Source of the DNA: Minisyncoccota bacterium
GTDB lineage: Bacteria; Patescibacteriota; Minisyncoccia; UBA6257; XYB1-36-10
Assembly (NCBI GenBank): GCA_041651415.1
Contig: JBAZJH010000002.1
Span: 20,474-84,473, forward strand
Length of the DNA: 64,000 nt
Direction: 5' to 3'
The notes beneath the pieces were generated by a model. That model did no database searches and had not been told where the DNA came from. It saw only the letters and a program-made list of their open reading frames with translations. Shown piece by piece: positions 3,292 to 63,982 of this stretch. The position numbers and the translations under genes were made by a program. Each line of letters opens with the position of its first letter. The first letter of the stretch is position 1.

Positions 3292-6066
3292 TTAAGAACA
3301 GCCGCCGGAGGATTCGCCGCATTCAAGGCAGGTTTGGCAGGTGCCGGTTCGAACCATCATCCCGCCGCATTTTTTACAGACAGTGCCGGAAAATACTTGT
3401 CCGTTTTTTAGAGGAGAAGAATAAGAAACAGTTCTGATTTCTTCATTTTTAGCTTCTTTAATTTCAGCGACAGAGGGAACAGAAGCGGCATCTTTTGAAA
3501 TGGAAGCAAGATAAGAAGCGGAGGGAGAAAGGCCGAATTCAAAAAGTTCTTCCGGAGAAAGAAAGCGGAGAGCGAGATAGCGGAAAATGTAATCAATAAT
3601 GCTTGTCGCTATTTTTATTTCCGGATTGTCGGTGAAACCGGCCGGTTCAAAACGGCTATGAATAAATTTGTGAGTAAGGTCTTTCAGAGGAACGCCGTAT
3701 TGGAGCGACATAGAAATTGTGATGGCAAAAGCATCAAGGAGGCCGGAAAGAGTGCTCCCCTGCTTTGCCATTCTAATAAATATTTCCGCCGGAGCGCCGT
3801 CTTCATACATACTATAGGTGAGATAACCTTCGTGGCCGGCAATGGAAAATTTGTGAGTTTCGGAAGGACGGGTTTTCGGCAGGCGGCGGCGGAAAGGTTT
3901 TGATTCCGAAATATTTTCTTTCTGTTCGGATTCTTTTTCTTTAGGTTTCGAAGTATTGAGCGGTTGAGTGGATTTTGAACCGTCGCGATAAACGGCAAAA
4001 GCTTTAATGCCTAGTTTCCAAGCCATAAGATAAGCATCATAAATTTCTTCAACAGTGGCGCTACTATCCATATTGAAAGTTTTAGAAATGGCGCCGGAAA
4101 TAAAAGGCTGGGCCGCGGCAACCATTTTGACGTGGCCGCGCCAAGAGATGGAACGGGAGCCATTGGCCGGTTTAACAGCGCAATCAAAAATGGAAAGATG
4201 CTCTTCTTTCAAGAAAGGCGCGCCTTCAATGGTATTATTTTTTTCAATAAAAGAAACAATTTCACCGGCTTCAATTTCTGAATAATTAAGATTAAGGAGA
4301 GCATTTTTTACGCCTTGATTAACAAGCTTCATCCAGCCGCCGCCAACCAGCTGTTTCATTTTAACGAGAGAGAATTCCGGTTCGATGCCGGTTGTGTCGC
4401 AGTCCATCATAAAGGAAATGGTGCCGGTTGGAGCAAGAACAGAAACTTGCGAATTGCGAAAGCCGTTTTTTCTGCCGAGTTCCAAAGCTTCATCCCAAAC
4501 TTTGAGAGCTTCCGCAGAAAGATTAGGGTCGTTTAAAAGAGAAACATTAACGCGGCGGGAAGCATCGCGGTGTTTTTCAATAACATAAAGCATAGCATCT
4601 TTATTTTTTTCATAGCCGGTAAAAGGACCGGTGAGAGCGGAGATTTCAGCGGAAAATCGATAAGCTTCGCCGGTTAAAAGAGAAGTGACAGAAGAAACGA
4701 AAGCGCGGCCTTCTTCGGAATCGTAAGCCAGGCCTTTAGACATCAAAGCGGCGCCGATATTAGCATAGCCCAAACCAAGCTGACGGAAATTTTTGGCGTT
4801 CTCGGTTATCTTTTCTGTCGGATAACTGGAGTGGCCGACAATTATTTCCTGCGCCAAAATTAAAATATCAACGGCGTGCTTAAATTCTTTAACTTTAAAA
4901 CTGCCATCATCTTCCAGAAATTTCATTATATTCAAAGAAGCGAGATTGCAAGCGGAGTCATCAAGATGCATATATTCGGAACAGGGGTTGGAAGCGTTGA
5001 TGCGGCCGGAAACGGGGCAGGTGTGCCAATCATTAATAGTAGTGTCAAACTGAACGCCCGGGTCGCCGCAAGCCCAAGCGGCTTTCGCAACTTCCATTAA
5101 GACATCTTTAGCTTTGTGAGTTTCCGCCGCTCCCCCGCCATTCACAAATTCCGTTTGCCAATCGCCATCTTTTTCAACTTTTTTCATAAAGTCATCAGAA
5201 AGACGGACGGAATTATTAGCATTTTGAAACTGGATAGAATACCAAGCTTCATTATTCAAATCGGCCATATTATAGCCGGCTTCGGCAAGAGCTCTGATTT
5301 TCTTTTCTTCTTCGGCTTTACAGCGGATAAAATCAAGAATATCGGGATGCTTGTCATTTAAAACCACCATTTTGGCGGCGCGGCGAGTGGTGCCGCCGGA
5401 TTTAATCATGCCGGCAACAGAGTCAGCGCCGCGCATAAAAGAGACCGGACCGGAAGCGCGGCCGCCGGCGGAAAGAAGTTCATATTTAGAACGAAGAGGA
5501 GAAAGATTAATACCGGCGCCGGAACCGCCTTTAAAAATTACGCCTTCGTTTTTTACCCAATCAAGAATAGAACCCATATCATCTTTAACAGAAAGAATGA
5601 AACAAGCGGAACATTGAGGGCGTTCCACACGGCCGACATTAAACCAAACCGGACTGTTAAAACTGCCTTTTTGAAAAAGAATCAAGTGAGCGAGTTCGCT
5701 TTCAAAAATGGCGGCTTCTTCAGAACCGGAAAAATAACCGGAGGATTCTCCCCAACCGCGAATGGTTTTGACAACGCGGGAAATCATTTCTTTGGCGCTT
5801 CGCTCCCGTTCGGGAGTGCCGAGTTTGCCGCGAAAATATTTGGAGGCGGTGATATTGACGGCGTTTTCCGACCAAAATTCGGGAAATTCCACTCCCCTCT
5901 GTTCAAAAGCTTTCTTCTCTCCGGAACCGACAGCGGCATCGCGTCTTACCCAAGACACCTCTTCAAAAGGATAAGTTTCAGATTTTGAAAAAAAACGTTT
6001 AAGGTTTAAAGATTTTTCCAAAACTGATTTTTTTTTGTCGGCAACCGGAAGATTTTGAGAAGGCAT
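3292..6066 (-). CDS. nrdJ: Ribonucleotide reductase, class II (adenosylcobalamin-dependent)
   Basis: Active-site region ASNPCSEYMHLDDSACNLASLN; C-terminal CxxC...CxxC tail typical of class II RNR; 924 aa; adjacent to cobA. Confidence 0.8.
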   Translation of the reverse strand: MPSQNLPVADKKKSVLEKSLNLKRFFSKSETYPFEEVSWVRRDAAVGSGEKKAFEQRGVEFPEFWSENAVNITASKYFRGKLGTPERERSAKEMISRVVKTIRGWGESSGYFSGSEEAAIFESELAHLILFQKGSFNSPVWFNVGRVERPQCSACFILSVKDDMGSILDWVKNEGVIFKGGSGAGINLSPLRSKYELLSAGGRASGPVSFMRGADSVAGMIKSGGTTRRAAKMVVLNDKHPDILDFIRCKAEEEKKIRALAEAGYNMADLNNEAWYSIQFQNANNSVRLSDDFMKKVEKDGDWQTEFVNGGGAAETHKAKDVLMEVAKAAWACGDPGVQFDTTINDWHTCPVSGRINASNPCSEYMHLDDSACNLASLNIMKFLEDDGSFKVKEFKHAVDILILAQEIIVGHSSYPTEKITENAKNFRQLGLGYANIGAALMSKGLAYDSEEGRAFVSSVTSLLTGEAYRFSAEISALTGPFTGYEKNKDAMLYVIEKHRDASRRVNVSLLNDPNLSAEALKVWDEALELGRKNGFRNSQVSVLAPTGTISFMMDCDTTGIEPEFSLVKMKQLVGGGWMKLVNQGVKNALLNLNYSEIEAGEIVSFIEKNNTIEGAPFLKEEHLSIFDCAVKPANGSRSISWRGHVKMVAAAQPFISGAISKTFNMDSSATVEEIYDAYLMAWKLGIKAFAVYRDGSKSTQPLNTSKPKEKESEQKENISESKPFRRRLPKTRPSETHKFSIAGHEGYLTYSMYEDGAPAEIFIRMAKQGSTLSGLLDAFAITISMSLQYGVPLKDLTHKFIHSRFEPAGFTDNPEIKIATSIIDYIFRYLALRFLSPEELFEFGLSPSASYLASISKDAASVPSVAEIKEAKNEEIRTVSYSSPLKNGQVFSGTVCKKCGGMMVRTGTCQTCLECGESSGGCS

Positions 6067-6158
6067 AGTGGGTTTTTTAAATAATTTTAATTAATGCGTA
6101 CTCCCATTATAAACCAAGAATAAGAAAAGCAATGTGGAAAACGCTTAAGGGGATTTTT

Positions 6159-6998: not shown

Positions 6999-7025
6999 AA
7001 ATTTTCAAAAGATTTATTAAGGAAA

Positions 7026-9244: not shown

Positions 9245-9338
9245 TTTACTCCGACCAAAGTCGGAGTTTATTAAATCTTAGCCGCTTCAAACCCCTTAAG
9301 ATAGCGCGCGGGGTTTGAAACTGAGATTTAATAAAAAA
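9245..9338 (+). repeat. Composite structured repeat E, copy 1 (hairpin + conserved tttattaaatcttagccgc ... gagatttaataaaaaa)
   Basis: Shares its 5' 40 nt and 3' 16 nt with 35681-35770; the inner hairpin differs; followed by a terminator hairpin. Confidence 0.6.
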
Positions 9339-9345
9339 GAAAAAA

Positions 9346-9386: not shown

Positions 9387-10631
9387 TTAGGCAACGTGAA
9401 AAAGTTCGTTGCCCCGGCCTTGCTGAATGAGCGGAACAAAGTTTTCCAGTACCTGCAGAACGAGTGGGTCGGCAAGATTAATAACTTTTCCACATTCGGC
9501 TGATACATAAGAGGCCATAACAAGACGGGTGATTTCCAGACCGTATTCCCAGTCCAGAAAAGCATTTTTCCCTTCCGAAAAAGCAGAAAGAGCGTTGCGC
9601 CATTCCGAAACGTATCCATACAGATCCGGTTCGTTTGGTTGGACCGCAAGAAGACCGCGGGAAGCAGTGGCTTTTTCCAGCGCCGCTTCCGCGTTAGCGG
9701 TTGCTTCTGCGGCGGCATCACCGATAAAGATGGAGAGCGGAGAAATCAGCGAATTAACTTCAAGAGCGTAACCGGGACCCATGGCTTCCATAAGAAGCCG
9801 CAGACCTTGCTTTTCAAACATCCAAGAATCAGTGAACTGCGCCTGGGCAATCTGGCCTGTTTCGGGATTTTCAAAAACGATAGTTCCCGAACAATAATCT
9901 TCGGCGGGAGTTTTGGCGTAGTCAACTCCTCTGTCCTTCAAAAGTTTTTCACGCCAATACGGAAGACCCCACTTCAGAAGACCGAGACTGCAGTTGACTG
10001 ATTTCGGCCTCATAAAAGTCGGCGATTTTCCGATGGGGTTAAGACAATACCAACCGACCGCGATGCTGTGACAGCCCATATCGCAAAGAACGCCGCCACC
10101 TTGGCGAGTGGGATCCCAGAACCAACCTTCGTGCGGACCGCCATGTTCTTCAGCGGAACGAGTTAGCGTGACTGGACCCATCTTTTTTTGAGTCGGCGTC
10201 AATTGAGTAAGCGCTGAGTGAATTGCCGGCATATGAATCTGGTTTTCGAAATAGGCGGTGTTGAGCCCGACGGAATTTGCCAATTCAACAAGACGCCGAG
10301 CTTCTTTCATGTTGCTACCTAAAGGCTTCTCACAAATAACACCTTTGAGATTCTCGCCTTTTTGGACCGCTTGAGTGATTTCTTCCATCGTTTCAACCCG
10401 AGCAAAGTTCGGCATAAACATGCAAACGATGTCGGAGATTTGGCAGAGTTCGGATACGCTTTCACATACTGAACATTCGCCCAGTCCGTTCGATTCCACT
10501 TCTGCGGCGAATGCTTCCGCCCCAGCGACAGCGAAAACACCAGTTATTTCTGCTCCTCTTACTGACTGAAGAGCCAACCGATGAAAATTTGCATTGAACC
10601 CCGCGCCTATAATTCCTACTTTTAGATTCAT
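9387..10631 (-). CDS. Gfo/Idh/MocA family NAD(P)-dependent oxidoreductase
   Basis: N-terminal Rossmann motif VGIIGAGFNANFH; EKP motif; RBS aaggagg; 414 aa. Confidence 0.75.
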   Translation of the reverse strand: MNLKVGIIGAGFNANFHRLALQSVRGAEITGVFAVAGAEAFAAEVESNGLGECSVCESVSELCQISDIVCMFMPNFARVETMEEITQAVQKGENLKGVICEKPLGSNMKEARRLVELANSVGLNTAYFENQIHMPAIHSALTQLTPTQKKMGPVTLTRSAEEHGGPHEGWFWDPTRQGGGVLCDMGCHSIAVGWYCLNPIGKSPTFMRPKSVNCSLGLLKWGLPYWREKLLKDRGVDYAKTPAEDYCSGTIVFENPETGQIAQAQFTDSWMFEKQGLRLLMEAMGPGYALEVNSLISPLSIFIGDAAAEATANAEAALEKATASRGLLAVQPNEPDLYGYVSEWRNALSAFSEGKNAFLDWEYGLEITRLVMASYVSAECGKVINLADPLVLQVLENFVPLIQQGRGNELFHVA

Positions 10632-11038
10632 TTTTTTCCTCCTTATGAGAAAAACTTTTTAGTTAGCGCAAACATAATTTATTGTTTGCTTTTATTTGAA
10701 ACATTTTTACTTCTTGCTTTAATAACGCAAAAGCATCTTTAACCTCCTTTCCGAAAGATAAACTAAAAAATATTATTGATGTAAAAGTGCGGGAAGATGT
10801 TAACACAATAATTTTTATTTGTAAATAGCAGTAGAAAAAGTAAAAGGCCATCAGATGATGGCCTTGTTTGCAGTTTATAGTCTAAATTTTAAAAACTTTT
10901 TGAAAGGCAGTTAAACGCCTGGTGTTTGATTAGTGCGTTTAATTAGTGTGCCTTTATAAAAAGCTTTTCTTTTTTTAGACTGATTTCAATGTTCTAACTT
11001 AAATATACAAAAAAGAAGTAAAGAGAGCAAGTGAGGGG

Positions 11039-11298
11039 GTGTGGAAAACTTTCGCTCACAACCTATAGCCGTTTTCAAAAACGCTTCAAGACTTTTTAAA
11101 TTAAAAAGAATTTTTTACGGAAGAAGCTTAACGCGGTGCCCGTTTGCCTTTTTGTCCGAAACGGACAAAAAGTTTTCCGACCACTACTTCTTCCTGAAAA
11201 ATTCTTAATTTAATAAAGTCTTTACGCTAAATTTTTAAGCGGCTATAGGTTGCTCGCTTGTTAGTGATAGTAAGGAAGCTCCGACCTTGAGTCGGAGC
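11039..11298. repeat. ~260-nt structured repeat, copy 1 (related to 63579-63844)
   Basis: Shared 5' block gtgtggaaaaNtttcgctc, a shared ~130-nt 3' block at ~80 percent identity, ending in a gctccgac-loop-gtcggagc hairpin; internal long-range stem acctatagccg / cggctataggt. Confidence 0.55.
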
Positions 11299-11319: not shown

Positions 11320-12813
11320 TTATTTGCGGAATTTGGGAGTGACCCAGAAGCCGAGACGCCACTTGCCGCCAAGAGCAAGCCTGGTTTGAGCTTCAATAGC
11401 CGGAAGAGAACCGAAGACAATCAGAGTGAAGGGCATTAGAGCCCACTGCAGAAGAAAGAGAAGATAGTGCCACCATTTAAACCATTTAGGAGGAGACGGG
11501 AGGAGAAGAATGGAAATAATAGCGGAAGAAACGATACCGATAGAAGCGAGACTCATTATGAAGCGGGTGATTTCCGGAAGATTATAAGACAAAAGAGAAT
11601 AGTTGAAATTTTCACCGCCAAGATAAATCGGGAGCCATCCTAAAGCAAAAATCAAAAGAGAATTGGTCGCCCAAGAGTGATAGCCCTCCAAAGTATTAAA
11701 GGTCCAATAAAGTTTTGTTTTGAGCGGCATCTTTTTATTTTTAAAAAATCCCCGCAAAAGATAAGGAACATTTTCCGAACCCCAAGCCCAGCGACGCTGC
11801 TGCTTATAAAGATTTTTCATCGAACCCCAAAAAGTAGAAGCGACGTTGGCATCCATGCAAACCGGATAGTTCAGCGGAACGACATGCCAGTCGCCGGAAT
11901 TGCCGATAAGGCATTGCCAAAAAATGCGCGAATCTTCCGAGACCAAATCTTTTTCCCAAAAACCGATATTGACGAGAGCTTTAAAAGGCATCGAGTGCGA
12001 AGAAAAAGTGGTGAGGCGTTCCGGGCGGGCCTGCTGCATCATCTGCCAAAAAGTGGTGGAAAAAGAAACAACGCGAGCAAGGGAAGGAGCTTGAAAAATA
12101 TTATTGGTAAAAAGAGGAATTGGCTGGAAGCTGGATTTCTCCGGATGCTCCGCAGTCAAAAAATTATAAGAAAGAATGCCAAAATATTCCGGCAGAACTT
12201 GCGTATCGACATCAAAAACGGAAACCAGAATATTTTCATATGGAATATTTTTTTTATCAATAACAAGCTCCTTAACTTTTTGCGCCATCCAAGTTTCGTT
12301 TGAGCCTTTGCCGGGAATTTCATCGGGAAGGTCGGAAGGATGAACGGTAATCAAGAAGTCCAAAAAATTATTCTGAAATTCATTTTTTATTTTTTCGGCG
12401 ATGGAAACAGCTTCTTCCCCCGCCCGCTCCTCCGCGCCGAGAACAAGAATAAATTTTTGCGAAGGATAATTGGATTCCAAAACACTTTTAAAACTTTCCC
12501 TGATAACTTCATAAGGCTCCTTATAAAAAGGAAAAAGAATAAGGTGATAAAGCTCCTCCCAATTTTTTTCGCTTTTTCCGTTTTCAGAAAGATTTTTTAT
12601 TCTTGAAAGCCAGTTGATTTTAAGATTCTTTTTCATTTCCTGAAAAGTGTGCCGCAAATGGAAGGAAAGAAAAATAGTTTTCAAGAGCCAATAAATATCA
12701 AAAAGGATGATAAAAACCGCCACAAAGACGGGGAAAAAATAGGAAAAGAAGAACATGCCGATTATTGTTCCCCAAGCAAGAAGGGCGGGAATAGCTTCAA
12801 AGAGTCTAGACAC
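11320..12813 (-). CDS. Processive family-2 glycosyltransferase (cellulose/chitin-synthase-like membrane GT2)
   Basis: N-terminal TM helices, DxD-like VFDVDTQ, and a QQRRWAWG (QxxRW) motif; 497 aa. Confidence 0.68.
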   Translation of the reverse strand: MSRLFEAIPALLAWGTIIGMFFFSYFFPVFVAVFIILFDIYWLLKTIFLSFHLRHTFQEMKKNLKINWLSRIKNLSENGKSEKNWEELYHLILFPFYKEPYEVIRESFKSVLESNYPSQKFILVLGAEERAGEEAVSIAEKIKNEFQNNFLDFLITVHPSDLPDEIPGKGSNETWMAQKVKELVIDKKNIPYENILVSVFDVDTQVLPEYFGILSYNFLTAEHPEKSSFQPIPLFTNNIFQAPSLARVVSFSTTFWQMMQQARPERLTTFSSHSMPFKALVNIGFWEKDLVSEDSRIFWQCLIGNSGDWHVVPLNYPVCMDANVASTFWGSMKNLYKQQRRWAWGSENVPYLLRGFFKNKKMPLKTKLYWTFNTLEGYHSWATNSLLIFALGWLPIYLGGENFNYSLLSYNLPEITRFIMSLASIGIVSSAIISILLLPSPPKWFKWWHYLLFLLQWALMPFTLIVFGSLPAIEAQTRLALGGKWRLGFWVTPKFRK

Positions 12814-32301: not shown

Positions 32302-32934
32302 TTACTTATTGATTTTATCCTCTTGATGGAAAAAGCGACCACCGCCAAAACCCATTCCCATTCCATTTTTCAATCCCAGTTCCTCAAAAATGGCTTTAGC
32401 TTCATCAGGCTTTCCCTCACTTAGAAGCTTGTGAGCCTCGGCAAAACGGGAAAAGTTTTGTTCATTGATAGTTTCCGTTATCTTCTGCCCTTCAACCAAA
32501 GTTTTCCAAGCGGAATAATCTTTATTTTCTAGAGCTTTTTCGATAGCAGCGCGGTCTTCAGAATTTTTTCCGTCTTTCGGAGGCGCTAATCTTCCCATAA
32601 AAACGCCGAAACCATGCCCATCAACGCCAAGTTCTTTTAAAACCGCCTGGCCTTCTTTGATTTTCAACAAAGCTTCAGCATACTTCACAAAATTTTGTTC
32701 ATTGATAGTTTCCGTTATCTTCTGCCCTTCAACCAAAGTTTTCCAAGCGGAATAATCTTTATTTTCTAGAGCTTTTTCGATGGCGTCGATTTTAGTCTGG
32801 TCAAAGACCGGACGAGAAGCAGAGTTTTCGTTTCCGCCATTTTTATTTTCCGCAAAAACCTGCGGAAGAGCAAAAGCGGAAACAACCAAGAAACTTGCGC
32901 CCAGAGTAGTTAAAACTTCTTTCTTATTCATCAT
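32302..32934 (-). CDS. Secreted protein with an internally duplicated 79-aa domain
   Basis: Signal peptide; two in-frame copies share an 89-nt block that is 100 percent identical at the DNA level (32456-32544 and 32693-32781). Confidence 0.6.
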   Translation of the reverse strand: MMNKKEVLTTLGASFLVVSAFALPQVFAENKNGGNENSASRPVFDQTKIDAIEKALENKDYSAWKTLVEGQKITETINEQNFVKYAEALLKIKEGQAVLKELGVDGHGFGVFMGRLAPPKDGKNSEDRAAIEKALENKDYSAWKTLVEGQKITETINEQNFSRFAEAHKLLSEGKPDEAKAIFEELGLKNGMGMGFGGGRFFHQEDKINK

Positions 32935-35680: not shown

Positions 35681-35770
35681 TTTACCCCGACCAAAGTCGG
35701 GGTTTATTAAATCTTAGCCGCAAAAATCTCGCGACAAAGCGCGGGTTTTTCGCGGAGATTTAATAAAAAA
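35681..35770 (+). repeat. Composite structured repeat E, copy 2
   Basis: ccccgaccaaagtcgggg hairpin + tttattaaatcttagccgc + variable hairpin + gagatttaataaaaaaa; the homolog of 9245-9338. Confidence 0.6.
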
Positions 35771-35798
35771 ACCCGAAGAGGGTTTTAAAAATGAGGCA

Positions 35799-35838
35799 GG
35801 GGGAGAAGGAAAAAATTTTCCTTCTCCCCCGCTTTTTT
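35799..35838 (+). terminator. Strong orphan hairpin-terminator (gggggagaagg / ccttctccccc + T-run)
   Basis: 11-bp perfect GC-rich stem followed by gcttttttg; no plus-strand CDS upstream; lies inside a 430-bp hairpin-dense, GC-richer non-coding stretch. Confidence 0.55.
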
Positions 35839-36082
35839 GTTTCGGAGCGCGCGTTCTCCGAAACGGCGGTTCCGACGTGAGACAAAAATCCCGGGCCGGA
35901 AACGAACAACGCCCCTTGGCGGTTCTCCGCCCCGCGGCAGAAAGCAAAAATCAGGCCAAGAAAACCGTTCGCCGGAGCTTTTGCCGCAAAATCAAAGTGC
36001 TATAAACACTTGAAAAAAAGAATAAACCAAGATGATTTTTTTATCAACCCCGTTAGAAAATATTTTCTAACGGGGCAAAAAA

Positions 36083-45387: not shown

Positions 45388-45781
45388 TTTGATTTTTTTC
45401 TTTTTTATTGCCGGCAGCTTCTTTTTTATCTTCCCCTTTTTTAGAGGCGATTTCTGTCGCTTTTTTCAGAACCGGATTATTAGAGAGAGAAATGGCGATA
45501 ATAACAGTGACGGTTTTGACCGGCAAGAGATTGATAAAAGGGATAAATTCAATAAGACCTCCCGCCAGAAACCAAGCGCCTCTCGCTCCTTTTATTATAA
45601 GCCAGAGGTAAACAAAACCAAAAATAAAAGTATTGATAAGCCAAGTGAAAACAACAGACAAAGGGGCGACGGGCGGAACCAAACTAAAAGCATAAGAAAG
45701 AAGCTCGGCAGTGTCGGCAAAAAGGCAGATGAGAATTAAAATAATGCTTTCAGGAAGGGAAAACTTTTTTTGTTCATCCAT
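45371..45781 (-). CDS. T4SS-operon polytopic small membrane protein
   Basis: 136 aa; overlaps its neighbours by 8-17 nt (translational coupling). Confidence 0.5.
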   Translation of the reverse strand: MDEQKKFSLPESIILILICLFADTAELLSYAFSLVPPVAPLSVVFTWLINTFIFGFVYLWLIIKGARGAWFLAGGLIEFIPFINLLPVKTVTVIIAISLSNNPVLKKATEIASKKGEDKKEAAGNKKEKNQNEKNS

Positions 45782-47495
45782 TTTTATCCTTATTTAAAAT
45801 CTCTTCAGGGTTAGTGGTGATAATCTGATGTTCAAAAAAAGAAGCGACAATTTCAACGGCCACATGCTTTAAACCGGCAAAGAAAAGACCATTGCCGACT
45901 TCAGTTTCCACCAGGAAATTCTTTTCCGTTTCGGAAAGAGCAAAAATTTTTGAGAGTATTTCAGCGGAAGTGTTGGACTGTTTTAGAAGAAGCTGGAGAG
46001 AGGAATTGGTGACAATAGGGCGACCAAAAGAAGAGTTTAGAAAATCCTCGACATCTTGAGTGATAGTCGTGATGCCAAGAAAATATTTTCTGGCTCTTTT
46101 AACAAGGCCGAAAAGGAAGCTCGCGGAAGCTTCGTGTTTCATCATAATCCAAGCTTCATCAATAAAGACAAGGCGTTTTTTGAATTCGGAGCGGATAAGA
46201 TTCCAAATAAAACTCAAAACAATATGCATGGCGATGGGGCGAAGCTCTTCTTCCAAATCACGAATAGAAAAAACAACCAAGCGATTTTTGACATTGATAT
46301 TGGTCGGTTTGTTAACAAAGCCGGCAAAGCTGCCGCTCGTGTAACGATAAAGCTTGGCGGCCAGGTCTTTTCCGCCATCCATATTGTTCAGAACAGCTTC
46401 CAAGTCGCTTAAAAGAGGCGCGGGAGCGAAAGAAAAATCTTTTTCAGGAGTGATTTCTCTGGAAGCATAAGTTTCAGTAATAGCTTTATCGAGAAGAGAT
46501 TCTTCGGAAGGAGTGATATCGCCCACCATCAATTTTATCAAAGTGGCGAGATTAACAATGTGGGATTTAAGAGTTTCAGCCGCATCTTCGTCCTCAGGAA
46601 CAGCAGGAACATCAAAAGGATTAATATTGTCTTCGGAAGTCAAAGAAATTTTTATATGAGAACCGCCGACGGCTTCGGCAAGATTTTCATATTCATTTTC
46701 CGGGTCAATAACTAAGACATCGGAGCCAACCATTAAGGAACGGAGAATTTCCATTTTGGCAAAATAAGATTTTCCGGAACCGGATTTGGCAAAAATAACC
46801 ATATTGGCGTTTTCGAGAGAAAAGCGGTCAAAAATAACAAGAGTGTTATTGTGTTTGTTGATGCCATAAAGGATTCCTTTATCGGAAGTTAAGTCGGTTG
46901 AAATAAAAGGAAAGAAGGAAGAAATAGGAGAAGAATTAAGCGGAACATTAACTTTGAGCTCGTCGTTTTCCAAAGGAAGAACGGAGAAGAAAGCTTCAGT
47001 TTGCTGAAAAGTCGCCGGTTTGGTGTAAATGAGTTTGCTTTCAAGAAGAAGATTGATTTCTTTTTCAAGGTCATTCAGTTCTTCGACGGTTTTTCCGTAA
47101 AAAGCGATATAAATTCCAACATTAAAGAGCTTTTCCCGCGCTTGTTGGAGAGCATCGCGAAGAGTTTCGACATCCTGATAAGCGGTTTCAAGAGCCGGGT
47201 CGCGAACCATCCCCTTTTCTTCATATTCGTTTATCTGCGCTTCCACGCGAGCGGCTTTTTTTCTAAGATTTTTCAAAGCGATGCCAGTGTCAACGGGATG
47301 AATAAAAATAGAAATATCGACAAGGCGAGGAAGATTGATGATAGGCAAAAACCAATCGCTTGTTATATAACGAGGATAAGAAAGGATAAAAATAGTCCGA
47401 AGAAAATTATTGCCAATTTTGACGTGATTAGGAGAAAGCTCCACAGCCGAAGGAGCAATGACATCTTTTATTTCTTTAAATTTTTCTTGGTCCAT
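45774..47495 (-). CDS. virB4: VirB4/TrbE/PrgJ-family T4SS ATPase, C-terminal part (residues equivalent to ~230-800)
   Basis: Walker A FAKSGSGKSY, Walker B LVFIDEAW, and the RTIFILSYPRYITSDWF block that follows the N-domain in VirB4; its ATG lies in an open frame that continues upstream. Confidence 0.85.
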   Translation of the reverse strand: MDQEKFKEIKDVIAPSAVELSPNHVKIGNNFLRTIFILSYPRYITSDWFLPIINLPRLVDISIFIHPVDTGIALKNLRKKAARVEAQINEYEEKGMVRDPALETAYQDVETLRDALQQAREKLFNVGIYIAFYGKTVEELNDLEKEINLLLESKLIYTKPATFQQTEAFFSVLPLENDELKVNVPLNSSPISSFFPFISTDLTSDKGILYGINKHNNTLVIFDRFSLENANMVIFAKSGSGKSYFAKMEILRSLMVGSDVLVIDPENEYENLAEAVGGSHIKISLTSEDNINPFDVPAVPEDEDAAETLKSHIVNLATLIKLMVGDITPSEESLLDKAITETYASREITPEKDFSFAPAPLLSDLEAVLNNMDGGKDLAAKLYRYTSGSFAGFVNKPTNINVKNRLVVFSIRDLEEELRPIAMHIVLSFIWNLIRSEFKKRLVFIDEAWIMMKHEASASFLFGLVKRARKYFLGITTITQDVEDFLNSSFGRPIVTNSSLQLLLKQSNTSAEILSKIFALSETEKNFLVETEVGNGLFFAGLKHVAVEIVASFFEHQIITTNPEEILNKDKNG

Positions 47496-47515
47496 ATATG
47501 TTAAAAAATAAAAAA

Positions 47516-48211
47516 CTAAACTGAAGAAGGAGACTGGCTGGCAATACTCAAATTCTGCTTTTCGATAGTTTCAGGATTATAAAAATTATAGAAAAGTTCA
47601 AGAAGTTCTTCATTATTCAAAGCAACAGCCCGAAGGCCGATACTTTGAATGCCATCGATAACCTGGTCGCTTCTTTGTTTAAGCTGGCGGAAATTTATTT
47701 TTTTATTTTGGTCCAAACTAAGTTTTGCTTTAGCCGCCGCTTCTTTTTTATTGCCCCAAAAATTAAGTTTGGACAAAAAACCTCCGGCAGGAACAAGATA
47801 AACAGGATTGAAAGGAACGACGACTAAAAACATTTTGTTCATAATATCGTTTTCTTTTACAAAAGTTTTGATAAATTCCTTATATTCAAAAATTTGATTT
47901 TTAAGAAGCTCGTTTTGTTCAACCTTCTCAAGGTTTTCAATGTTTTTGATATAGTTATCAATATTAAATTTTCTGGAATGGACGAGAATCTGGACAGGAA
48001 AATCAAGGGAATTCAAAAAACGCTGGTAGGAGTTTAAAATAACGTTTTTTTCCTCCTCCGACATCAAGTCAAGATTGACGCCAGAAACCATAATAATCTG
48101 GCGGAGACCGCCATCTTTAAGGACAACAACATCTTCTTCAATGTTTTCTATCTTGATAAAATCCTGAGTGGAAGGAGCAGCTTTTGCCATACAATTATTA
48201 TAAAGCACCAA
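47516..48211 (-). CDS. virB4: VirB4 N-terminal domain, encoded separately (frameshifted/split virB4)
   Basis: EDVVVLKDGGLRQIIMVSGVNLDLMSEEEK...FPVQILVHSRK aligns to the VirB4 N-terminal domain (DHIVLLEDGSIMSI..GVAFE...HVSIYAHLVRH); stops 19 nt upstream of the next ATG, in a different frame, with no RBS between. Confidence 0.72.
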   Translation of the reverse strand: MVLYNNCMAKAAPSTQDFIKIENIEEDVVVLKDGGLRQIIMVSGVNLDLMSEEEKNVILNSYQRFLNSLDFPVQILVHSRKFNIDNYIKNIENLEKVEQNELLKNQIFEYKEFIKTFVKENDIMNKMFLVVVPFNPVYLVPAGGFLSKLNFWGNKKEAAAKAKLSLDQNKKINFRQLKQRSDQVIDGIQSIGLRAVALNNEELLELFYNFYNPETIEKQNLSIASQSPSSV

Positions 48212-48291
48212 ATAACAAACACCAAATAAATTACAAAAAACAATGAAGCTTTACGGCCTTACGAACCAACAAACAGCCGCTAAAGTTATCG

Positions 48292-48891
48292 TTAGCGATA
48301 ATCAACACGTTTAGCGGCGACTCTTTCACCGGTGAATTTTTCGATAATGGAATACTGGTCTTTTTTGCGGCGGCGGAAGAAAGAAAAATCTCTTTCGCGG
48401 TCGGTGATAACATTTTTAGTAGTCATCATTTTTTCAGACAAGTCTTTTAAACTGGAACCGGTCGTGATGGGAGAAGCTTCTAATTCCGGTTTTTTGGTGA
48501 TAATGATTTTGGGAGCCGGAATTTTAGCTTGAGGAAGAGGAGCGGCTCTTCTTTCAAAAGAAGGAATTTTTATTTTAGAGACTTTATCTTCCAAATCGGC
48601 CGGAGCGAAAATTTCGTGGCGCCACATAATAACGCGCGGGTTCCAATAAAACTCGAGAGCGGAAACAATAACAAGAGGAAGAGAGCGGCCGCTGATTTTC
48701 AGAAAAGCCAGCCCGGCGGCAGAAGCCCAGAAAAAAACAGCGATAACCAGCCAAAGCCAGAAATTAAGCAGATAAAAAAGTCCCAAACTTATTCCAAAAG
48801 CGGCGGCAAAATAAAAAAATTGCTTTAAAGTAAGCGGACCGACTATTTTGTCTTCGGTGTCTATAAATTGAGGTACCTGAAAAGTGGCCAC
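48292..48891 (-). CDS. PrgI/VirB3-like small membrane protein
   Basis: N-terminus VPQFIDTEDKIVGPLTLKQFFYFAAAFGISLGL matches the PrgI-family signature (VPKDl...fGLTlRQ); two TM helices; immediately upstream of virB4, as in Gram-positive T4SS. Confidence 0.5.
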   Translation of the reverse strand: MATFQVPQFIDTEDKIVGPLTLKQFFYFAAAFGISLGLFYLLNFWLWLVIAVFFWASAAGLAFLKISGRSLPLVIVSALEFYWNPRVIMWRHEIFAPADLEDKVSKIKIPSFERRAAPLPQAKIPAPKIIITKKPELEASPITTGSSLKDLSEKMMTTKNVITDRERDFSFFRRRKKDQYSIIEKFTGERVAAKRVDYR

Positions 48892-62377: not shown

Positions 62378-63493
62378 TTATGGGTTAATTAACGGGACGG
62401 CGGCTTTCAGTCCCGGATAGGAGGCAGATACTATAAAGTAGTTCCCCATCCACATATAGTCAATAGCCGCCTTTTTATTGGAAAAAGTGATGTATCTTGT
62501 CGGAACCGAATTAATTTGGCCATCAAGAAAGTCGGTAGAAACTCTTGTCCCTTGATTTTCCACAAAAATATTAGAAAAATCCGAGGAAGTTTCAAAAAGT
62601 TTCATAGCGCTTTCAGCGTCAAAAAGATTGGAATCGGCTTTTAGTTTAGCGATAAAGCCCGGCCAAACTTCAGAATCAGCATCATAATAAGCAAAAGCGG
62701 TAAAGTCGCTTTCAAAATAATTCTCTAAAGTTTCTTGGCTTAGACTGGGAAAAAGAGAGCTAAAAAATTCAGAGAATTTCATCTGATTGCCATCTTTCTG
62801 AACAACAAATTCCGAGACAGTGGAAGAAGCGGAAGCAATGCCAGCCGGTTTTAAAAGAGCAGAAATATCTGTTTTAAAAGTCAGAGAAGAAAAAGAAAGA
62901 GAGCCGATAGAAGGAGTATTTAAGTAAGAAGAATGAGTGATAACGGGAGCAATGGTTTCTTCCGAAACAGGAGTAGTTTCAGGCAAAGTAGTTACAGGCA
63001 TAGTATTTTCAACAACAGGAGCGGAAGCAGGAAAGAAAATCGGATAAAGATAAGCGTAGCCAACATAACCAAGCAATCCAACAGCCACAACCGCAACAAC
63101 TATAAGGATAATTTTTTTCCAATCAACACTTTTTCCGGAAGGAGCTTCGGCGATTTCTATTTGATTCTGCCCAGGAACAAAAGATTGTTCTCCGCCGAGT
63201 GAAGAAGAAGGAAAACCAGCGCCAAAAGGAGACGCTTGGTCACTAGATGCGCCGGGAGTCGGCGAGGCGGGTTGATTTGCTTCGCTTAAATTAAATTTTT
63301 TGGGCTCGGGAGAACCGCCGCCGCTTTGTTTTACCGATTGAATATCGGAAGGCATAGTGCGAACATCGACTGAAGAATCTTTCGGGGGCTCCGGAACAGG
63401 CCCGCCTAAAGGCGAGACAGGTCCGCCAAGAGGCGAGACGGGTCCGCCTAGCGGAGAAGAGCCGACCGGACTATTGAAATTTTGATTATCCAT
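62378..63493 (-). CDS. Membrane protein with N-terminal PLGGPVS tandem repeats
   Basis: (S)PLGGPV repeated 3 times, one TM helix, and a C-terminal extracytoplasmic domain. Confidence 0.55.
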   Translation of the reverse strand: MDNQNFNSPVGSSPLGGPVSPLGGPVSPLGGPVPEPPKDSSVDVRTMPSDIQSVKQSGGGSPEPKKFNLSEANQPASPTPGASSDQASPFGAGFPSSSLGGEQSFVPGQNQIEIAEAPSGKSVDWKKIILIVVAVVAVGLLGYVGYAYLYPIFFPASAPVVENTMPVTTLPETTPVSEETIAPVITHSSYLNTPSIGSLSFSSLTFKTDISALLKPAGIASASSTVSEFVVQKDGNQMKFSEFFSSLFPSLSQETLENYFESDFTAFAYYDADSEVWPGFIAKLKADSNLFDAESAMKLFETSSDFSNIFVENQGTRVSTDFLDGQINSVPTRYITFSNKKAAIDYMWMGNYFIVSASYPGLKAAVPLINP

Positions 63494-63578
63494 AAAAAGT
63501 TTTTAAAGCGCTTTTTTAATTTTAATCTAAACCAAAAGGAGGCTTTTCTTTTATTATAAACCTTTATGGAAATAAAGG

Positions 63579-63844
63579 GTGTGTGGAAAAGTTTCGCTCC
63601 ATGGCAAAAACCTTTTTCAAAAAAGGGCGAATCGCCAAAATTTTGAAAAAAGTTTTTGCCATCTCGCTTAGGGTGATGAGAGAGAGGCTTGCTAACGCAA
63701 GCTTTTTAAAAAGACAGGGAGTTTAATTATTATTTCTTCCTAAAAAATTCTTAATTTATTAAAGCTTCTACACTACATTTTAGAGAGCGGATATTGGTTA
63801 TTCGCTTTTAGTGATAATGGGGAAGCTCCGACTTTAGTCGGAGC
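63579..63844. repeat. ~260-nt structured repeat, copy 2 (related to 11039-11298)
   Basis: Same 5' and 3' conserved blocks as copy 1; ends in a gctccgac-loop-gtcggagc hairpin followed by a T-run. Confidence 0.55.
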
Positions 63845-63953: not shown

Positions 63954-63982
63954 TTGACATATATTATAGAGTATGCTATAAT
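63954..63982 (+). promoter_or_regulatory. Consensus sigma70 promoter (TTGACA-17-TATAAT) at the window edge
   Basis: ttgacatatattatagagtatgctataat. Confidence 0.55.

Follow-up and report, generated by a model that had tools for sequence, protein, structure and literature searches.

The closest described systems are the bacterial MITEs and palindromic intergenic repeats, such as ERIC/IRU, Correia/NEMIS, RUP and Bacillus bcr1. These repeats are non-coding, 100–300 bp long and located between genes, often beside terminators or promoters; they are built from an imperfect palindrome or from inverted arms that can pair as a long hairpin, and they show short direct repeats at their edges and presence or absence between related genomes. 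Classical families of the MITE type comprise tens to hundreds of copies, with terminal inverted repeats that are typically 10–30 bp long. The pneumococcal BOX elements and the BIMEs of E. coli are mosaic intergenic repeats built from modules. CPR (Paceibacterota) genomes are thought to carry few mobile elements.

The two stretches of DNA considered here, found in a 64-kb window (the whole stretch that was analysed), resemble the MITEs and palindromic repeats in each of these respects of size, position, foldback form, edge repeats and patchy distribution. Nevertheless, they differ from them in that two copies were seen rather than tens to hundreds, the arms measure approximately 75–80 nt instead of the typical 10–30 bp, one copy is single-armed, no partner transposase is known for the repeat, and the shared sequence continues past the putative duplication and takes in flanks already ancestral at one of the loci. 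Because the shared flanks extend beyond the putative duplication, a segmental copy fits better than clean transposition. With BOX elements and BIMEs the two stretches share conserved end modules, a variable middle, an association with REP-like hairpins and a stable predicted secondary structure without a demonstrated RNA function. On the other hand, there is no sequence similarity to those families, the modules do not recur in varying number or order, and the end modules, a promoter box and a terminator hairpin, occur independently as well. On sequence grounds, the two stretches are best read as a real, two-copy, lineage-restricted, non-coding foldback that belongs with the MITEs or palindromic intergenic repeats. 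The many repeats of this type already known in bacteria thereby gain one small, lineage-restricted example, which matters little alone; such sequences do occur in CPR genomes.

Extent and architecture of the two copies

An earlier, sequence-only reading of this DNA had reported two look-alike stretches of approximately 260 nt sharing a 3′ segment of about 130 nt at roughly 80 % identity, and the two stretches were confirmed to exist. Copy 1, which comprises a box, the foldback, a flank and a terminal hairpin, occupies 11034–11298, and copy 2 occupies 63576–63844 (both delimited by sequence and blastn). The 3′ alignment pairs 11185–11298 with 63731–63844 at 81 % identity over 116 nt (blastn, E 1e-23) and retains identical runs of 12 to 16 nt, while the 5′ alignment pairs 11034–11081 with 63576–63623 at 77 % over 48 nt; the approximately 105 nt between these two shared segments show no similarity between the copies. 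When the terminal hairpin and the 5′ box are removed, the shared segment is still 79 % identical over 95 nt (E 1e-18). In scans of the window, the 5′ motif GGTGTGGAAAANTTTCGCTC matches only at 11038–11057 (0 mismatches) and 63580–63599 (1 mismatch), with a chance expectation of 0.05, and the 3′ motif TTAGTGATANNNNGGAAGCTCCGAC, of the form TTAGTGATA-N4-GGAAGCTCCGAC, matches only at 11261 and 63808, with 0 expected. Stop codons interrupt all three plus-strand and all three minus-strand frames of the shared 3′ segment, in agreement with the earlier statement that the copies are non-coding.

The genome-specific part of the repeat is the stretch of approximately 215 nt between the box and the terminal hairpin, and its core is an arm unit of about 75 nt, CTTCTTCC...GGTTGCTCGC. 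A profile of the shared segment (nhmmer) finds exactly three copies of this unit, namely an inverted pair that forms a foldback in copy 1 and a single one in copy 2. In copy 1 the left arm (11048–11127, minus strand, nhmmer E 7e-16) and the right arm (11185–11262, plus strand, nhmmer E 6e-21), the latter being the unit common to copy 2 (blastn 81 %), are 72 % identical and enclose, as inverted arms of approximately 75–80 nt, a central 11-bp hairpin (CTTTTTGTCCG AAA CGGACAAAAAG) identified at 11148–11172 from sequence and folding. This copy contains a perfect 13-bp inverted pair, CAACCTATAGCCG (11059–11071) and CGGCTATAGGTTG (11240–11252), that extends into the arms of about 75 nt; the long-range stem described earlier as 11 bp is thus real and 2 bp longer than reported. 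The predicted fold is an almost fully paired foldback closed by the 13-bp stem (MFE -99.6 kcal/mol, z -9.2). Between the right arm and the terminal hairpin lies a flank, GTGATAGTAAGGAAG, at 11263–11277 on the plus strand.

Copy 2 contains the right arm only (63731–63810, plus strand, nhmmer E 5e-20); the outer part of the left arm survives as a weak remnant, two hairpins are peculiar to this copy, and it has no left terminus matching that of copy 1. The first of these hairpins (ATGGCAAAAAC.../...GTTTTTGCCAT, 63601–63662) is an inverted repeat whose halves, 63601–63622 and 63641–63662, are 95 % complementary, which bears out the stem proposed earlier for this copy; the second (GGCTTGC TAAC GCAAGCT, 63686–63703) was identified from sequence and folding. 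The fold of copy 2 reaches z -7.1 against shuffled sequence. The description of the element as having a divergent, structured middle is accurate insofar as the middle cannot be aligned between the copies, but it overlooks that the left half of copy 1 repeats the conserved right half in inverted orientation. Conservation is uneven, at 80 % in the arm and undetectable in the middle, a difference that could also arise from selection on the arm.

Among the three arm units, the right arms of the two copies are 79.5 % identical, the right and left arms of copy 1 are 72 % identical, and the left arm of copy 1 and the arm of copy 2 are 61 % identical. If the arms diverged at similar rates, these sequence identities suggest that the foldback is older than the separation of the copies and that copy 2 has decayed since. 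A direct pentamer, TCGCT, flanks both copies on the plus strand (11052–11056 and 11254–11258 in copy 1, 63594–63598 and 63802–63806 in copy 2), and the flanks beyond it are also common to both. The left pentamer of copy 1 is a possible target-site duplication, but since the same flank occurs at both loci, it is not diagnostic and does not prove one; TCGCT could belong to the element, be a specific target or be part of a copied segment.

The possibility that the foldback is an assembly artefact was rejected, as a difference of 28 % separates its arms and both the left arm and the centre of copy 1 are present in independent contigs. The independent cover of this copy runs to 11193 and resumes from 11254 onward, with no contig spanning 11194–11253, whereas copy 2 is assembled at 100 % identity in an independent ENA contig (L022/L026). 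The short-read assemblies of the same organism (ENA ERZ27247363 and Logan SRR8542065) all break inside the two elements, at 11193 (start of L024), 11082 (start of L025), 11254 (end of L008) and 63772 (start of L023). Such breaks fit a repeat or a palindrome and say nothing about polymorphism.

The two ‘conserved ends’ in related genomes

Copy 1 lies between a glycosyltransferase gene (11320–12813) and a gene encoding a GFO/IDH/MocA oxidoreductase (9387–10631), both on the minus strand. The glycosyltransferase matches a protein of a Candidatus Paceibacterota MAG at 100 % identity, which assigns the window to the Parcubacteria/CPR group. Copy 2 is located upstream of a lineage-specific minus-strand gene of 371 aa (62378–63493), and its right neighbour is a divergent KH-domain gene, seen in the 100 % identical ENA contig of the same organism, with a perfect TTGACA-17-TATAAT promoter at 63954–63982. 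Relatives for comparison were defined at locus 1 by the identity of the glycosyltransferase (L009, 85 %; L014, 73 %; L010, 69 %) and at locus 2 by the identity of the neighbouring protein (L016, 78 %; L019, 65 %; L020, 46 %).

The 5′ motif contains, in reverse complement, a DnaA-box-like box, TTTTCCACA(C); its minus-strand sequence, AAAnTTTTCCACAC, fits the DnaA-box pattern TTWTNCACA. At locus 1 the box (11040–11048, minus strand) lies 31 nt upstream of a minus-strand -10 element, TATATT (11007–11002), with a -35-like TTGCTC (11030–11025) in between, and L009, L014 and L010 carry it at the same place, just upstream of a conserved promoter, TTGCkC-17-TATATT; in L010 it follows the stop codon directly. 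At locus 2 the box (63582–63590, minus strand) lies 23 nt upstream of the -10 element TATAAT (63558–63553) of the gene at 62378–63493. Box and promoter are kept at this locus in L016, L019 and L020, where CTTTTCCACAC stands 30–31 nt upstream of TATAAT and the spacers are unrelated. In a six-sequence alignment that includes element-free relatives, the box is the sole invariant block; the orthologous versions read TTATCCACA in L010, ATATCCACA in L009 and TTTTCCACA in L014, L016, L019 and L020, with TCCACA invariant. Since the box is kept at the same sites in relatives without the element, this end predates the element, and by sequence it is a pre-existing promoter-side operator of putative DnaA-box type rather than an element terminus.

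The resemblance to the DnaA box (TTATCCACA / TTWTNCACA) consists of the matching pattern and its conservation at orthologous positions, which make it a candidate site; such boxes are, however, not statistically enriched in the window, where 10 were found and 6 are expected. An origin of replication was considered and rejected, as the boxes are neither enriched nor clustered and the cumulative GC skew rises steadily without a switch.

A third intergenic box, TTTTCCACA/TTATCCACA, occurs at 6133–6141 (minus strand), 21–22 nt upstream of the TATAAT of a gene encoding a class II (B12-dependent) ribonucleotide reductase (3292–6066). The arrangement is kept in three Paceibacterota genomes (also at L014 4746 and L010 8069), and in all three the box overlies the -35 region of the promoter. 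In model bacteria nrd genes are regulated by DnaA, and by analogy the position of the box suggests that DnaA may control nrd here as well.

Directly downstream of the copy 1 box on the minus strand, a separate non-coding unit is conserved at 10840–11000 (2030–2195 in L009, 1950–2135 in L014 and 5620–5795 in L010). It consists of the promoter TTGCTC-17-TATATT (11030–11002), about 150 conserved nt with the core CTAAnTAAACGCACTAA...TAGGCGTTTAaCTGCCTTTCAAAAAG, and a terminator formed by a hairpin and a T-tract at 10865–10844. The unit adjoins the glycosyltransferase gene in four genomes, even where the following gene differs; it has no Rfam match and shows double changes at three pairs in an alifold alignment. 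From its sequence it looks like an unannotated small RNA gene and is a candidate for one.

Six hairpins with a CCGAC/GTCGG stem occur in the window, among them the one at the 3′ side of the repeat (GCTCCGAC-loop-GTCGGAGC), and at least five more occur in 19 kb of adjacent genome, one of which is the terminator of the PNPase gene. The stem thus recurs in no fewer than ten further hairpins of this genome, which for the most part lie just after genes. In copy 1 the hairpin GCTCCGACCTTGAGTCGGAGC (11278–11298, minus strand) acts, by position, as the putative terminator of the glycosyltransferase gene and has an orthologue in L014. There, the stop codon is followed by TTTGGCTaATTATT, the hairpin GCTCCGGCTAAGGTCGGGGC, approximately 20 nt and then AAAGTTTTCCACA, with the middle of about 215 nt missing; the hairpin stands right after the glycosyltransferase stop, with the same TTTGGCTnATTATT before it and a homologous flank after it. 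Because hairpin and box are only about 20 nt apart in L014, the two ‘ends’ of the element are adjacent in a genome that lacks its middle, and as the flank at 11263–11277 is homologous to the L014 flank (GTAATAATAAGATAG, aligned by hand), it is ancestral at locus 1. In L009 (1960–1990, corresponding to 11320–11345 of the window) a deletion took the stop codon, the terminator hairpin and the spacer, extending the reading frame by 7 codons (DEKDIHN) into the DnaA-box-like site; with everything between the final codon and the box gone, this genome is uninformative about the element.

As a Rho-independent terminator, the hairpin has a strong stem of 8 bp with 6 G-C pairs, and both the L014 orthologue and the position after the stop codon fit this role at locus 1. 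However, the minus-strand pyrimidine tract is poor (TTCCTTAC, TTCCCCAT), the tails TTCCTTACTATC and TTCCCCATTATC being weak U-tracts, and the 3′ hairpins of both copies were not called by the terminator scan. Moreover, the copy 2 hairpin GCTCCGACTTTAGTCGGAGC (63825–63844), which is followed by TTTTT on the plus strand, lies in a divergent-promoter spacer with no upstream minus-strand gene to terminate. Judged by sequence, the 3′ end is a generic, pre-existing hairpin, probably of terminator type, and not a terminus of the element. The ‘conserved ends’ of the sequence-only reading are therefore common to both copies, but neither is specific to the element. The methodological lesson is that what looked like element termini were a box beside a promoter and a generic, putative terminator hairpin, each of which exists independently in relatives.

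The hairpin family itself was recorded at 7025, 9248, 11278, 23371, 35684 and 63825 in the window, at 4208, 8461, 8568 and 9650 in L026 and at 1214 in L027. Its stem, (C/T)CCGAC-loop-GTCGG(G/A), is the sole recurring GC-rich stem in the window, is also found in the relatives L014 and L016 and varies in a paired manner (CTCCGAC/GTCGGAG and CCCCGAC/GTCGGGG); it could represent a REP-like or uptake-sequence-like terminator family. A repeat of approximately 95 nt occurs in three copies, at 9245–9340 and 35681–35775 and in L027 at 1211–1305, with about 79 % column identity and no Rfam match. It is laid out as a CCGAC hairpin, TTAAATCTTAGCCGC, a variable GC-rich inner hairpin and a closing GAGATTTAATAAAAAA that pairs with TTAAATCT, and it is presumably the first repeat family of the sequence-only reading. 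The DnaA-box-like site at three promoters, the candidate small RNA and the hairpin family may outweigh the repeat itself in worth.

Possible RNA, protein and promoter functions

A scan of the whole window against Rfam at gathering thresholds returned seven tRNAs only, permissive scans of both copies gave only hairpin-type chance matches far below threshold, and ARAGORN found no tmRNA. The earlier statement that the copies resemble no known RNA is upheld, as neither reaches or nears the threshold of any Rfam family. The stability of the shared segment is ordinary: without its terminal hairpin, it folds with z values of -0.9, -0.9, -0.1 and +0.4 against shuffles (both strands), and the more stable strand differs between the copies, being the minus strand in the core of copy 1 (-88 vs -78 kcal/mol) but the plus strand in copy 2 (-95 vs -80 kcal/mol). 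RNAalifold found 0 compensatory pairs on either strand, in a comparison of two sequences that has little power. No promoter or terminator is common to both copies on either strand. The structured-RNA reading of the shared segment, which the sequence-only reading had raised as a lineage-specific ncRNA, is thus not supported by sequence or modelled folding; the similarity is confined to two loci and shows no covariation, an outcome that the sequence-only reading had itself named as refuting.

A more specific proposal is a family of plus-strand small RNA genes whose transcripts would run from the box region, or close to it, as far as the GCTCCGAC hairpin, with a functional 3′ segment acting, for example, as a seed or protein-binding region. 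The identical runs within the shared segment count in its favour, as does the plus-strand consensus fold, in which 31 pairs are formed and 0 broken and all four substitutions in predicted stems are one-sided and wobble-compatible; these substitutions are a weak hint, given that the fold was optimised on the plus strand from two sequences. In copy 2 the hairpin is followed by TTTTT, a canonical hairpin plus U-tract, but in copy 1 it is followed by AAATAAT, and its L014 orthologue is the putative minus-strand terminator of the glycosyltransferase gene. The plus-strand promoter candidate of copy 2, TTTAAA-17-TATTAT, is likewise not shared, its counterpart in copy 1 being CACTAC. Furthermore, the shared segment lacks excess stability, in copy 1 it is tied up by pairing with the left arm in a far stronger foldback, no homologue was found in the relatives' loci or the scanned collections, and Rfam gave no match. 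A small RNA of this kind is considered unlikely.

The box region also contains a GTG codon from which plus-strand reading frames can be opened in both copies, encoding putative small basic proteins of 55 aa (MENFRS..., 11041–11208) and 47 aa (MEKFRS..., 63583–63726). The start is the same in both, a G-rich stretch precedes it, and the first 25 residues are 40 % identical (10/25). This similarity is nevertheless that of the box-region DNA read in frame; the two frames are unrelated past residue 25 and end at different points, the 3′ segment, where the DNA is conserved best, is not part of the copy 2 frame and is in a different frame from that of copy 1, and the start codon sits inside a box conserved in relatives that have no such reading frame. 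A coding function, rejected by comparison of the reading frames and frame analysis, is barely credible.

It may also be asked whether the repeat is a selected cis-acting DNA module, in which an AT-rich, cruciform-prone foldback beside a DnaA-box-like site would modulate or insulate minus-strand promoters. Each copy adjoins this box, with the orientation unchanged between the loci and a minus-strand promoter directly downstream, and the relatives retain the box, which is also conserved at the promoter of the ribonucleotide reductase gene. However, the orthologous promoters of L014, L016, L019 and L020 exist without the element, as does the third box-bearing promoter of the window (ribonucleotide reductase, 6141); in addition, the internal architecture differs between the copies and the distance from box to -10 element is inconstant, with 31 nt at locus 1 but 23 nt at locus 2. 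Such a module appears slightly less likely still than the small RNA. More speculative again, and distinctly improbable, is that the unit from hairpin to box is a portable regulatory cassette (a terminator or insulator with a DnaA-box operator), or that a plus-strand small RNA of approximately 270–300 nt is tied to the DnaA-box promoters that it overlaps. If either were true, copying would rewire which genes answer to DnaA in a minimal genome.

Distribution and proposed history of the repeat

The element is missing at the orthologous sites of L014 (locus 1) and of L016, L019 and L020 (locus 2), with boundaries that are inexact given neighbouring proteins of 46–78 % identity. The arm unit was found neither in the orthologous spacers nor elsewhere in 89 kb of the relatives' loci (blastn, nhmmer). 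Within the same genome, the copy number amounts to two elements and three arm units in the 64-kb window, and a further 19 kb contains no other family member (blastn, nhmmer). In a collection of genome contigs, the 5′ motif gave 7 matches in unrelated phyla, about the number expected by chance, none of them accompanied by the 3′ motif. The AT-rich 3′ motif had 0 matches in metagenome contigs and 0 in viral contigs, and the TAGTGATA-hairpin motif had one high-GC chance match in the metagenomes and none in the viral contigs. No blastn match was obtained for copy 1 among phages or for copy 2 among plasmids, and a full-text literature search for MITEs or ncRNAs of CPR bacteria returned nothing relevant. 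Pfam scans of the 38 ORFs of the window revealed no transposase; the only recombinase seen was an integrase of the XerC/D type, in L026. The MITE-like alternative of the sequence-only reading is hence matched in form, the repeat being non-coding, intergenic, folded back, flanked by TCGCT and missing from the relatives' spacers, but many dispersed copies were not found in the approximately 83 kb covered, nor a transposase in the window.

With slightly better than even confidence, the repeat is regarded as a lineage-restricted, MITE-like foldback, duplicated at the DNA level, that lies between a pre-existing terminator hairpin and the box and whose second copy derives from the hairpin-to-box module; against it counts that only two copies occur in approximately 83 kb of this genome, which gives no sign of multi-copy behaviour or mobility. 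An old inverted duplication or insertion of the arm unit of about 75 nt would first have generated a foldback of approximately 210 bp between two pre-existing minus-strand signals, the terminator hairpin of the glycosyltransferase gene and the DnaA-box-like box of the next promoter (TTTTCCACAC). At a later stage, either the complete module from hairpin to box or the element together with its right flank may have been copied into a second intergenic region carrying the same box. The likeliest route would be recombination anchored on the box, with one junction in the shared box; alternatively, transposition in trans might have favoured box-adjacent sites. Copy 2 would afterwards have lost most of its left arm and gained its own hairpins.

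Several observations bear on the direction of copying. When the foldback and one TCGCT are removed, both loci read nearly the same, as the box followed by TTTCGCTT.TTAGTGATA....GGAAGCTCCGAC (four variable bases, GGAA and the hairpin). This foldback-free sequence is collinear with L014 at locus 1 only, which makes it ancestral there; at locus 2 only the box is found in L016, L019 and L020. The spacer at locus 2 measures 586 nt; in L019, with the KH-domain gene in the same divergent arrangement, it measures 348 nt. A terminator hairpin at this locus finds no minus-strand gene to act on, and the most likely reading is that it came in with the module. Given the collinearity at locus 1, the longer spacer at locus 2 and a hairpin without a minus-strand gene to terminate there, the simplest history is that the locus 1 module was copied to locus 2. 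The direction of copying, from locus 1 to locus 2, the route by recombination and the absence of a function are inferences.

Other features of the window include a GC-rich, hairpin-dense stretch at 35780–36000, within a 450-nt intergenic region between uvrC-like and uvrA-like genes, whose best Rfam score has an E value of about 0.01 in a genome that otherwise has a GC content of approximately 39 %. A 96-nt direct repeat (32452–32547 and 32689–32784) with 98 % identity between copies lying 237 nt (79 codons) apart is located inside a minus-strand ORF without a Pfam domain (32302–32934), where part of a protein seems to have been duplicated internally not long ago. A cluster at 45774–48891 resembles a type IV secretion or conjugation system and encodes a TraG/VirB4-like P-loop ATPase (45774–47495) and a PrgI-family protein (48292–48891), followed by large ORFs without a Pfam domain to approximately 55.6 kb; T4SS pilin genes lie past the right end of the window (L026 1–741).
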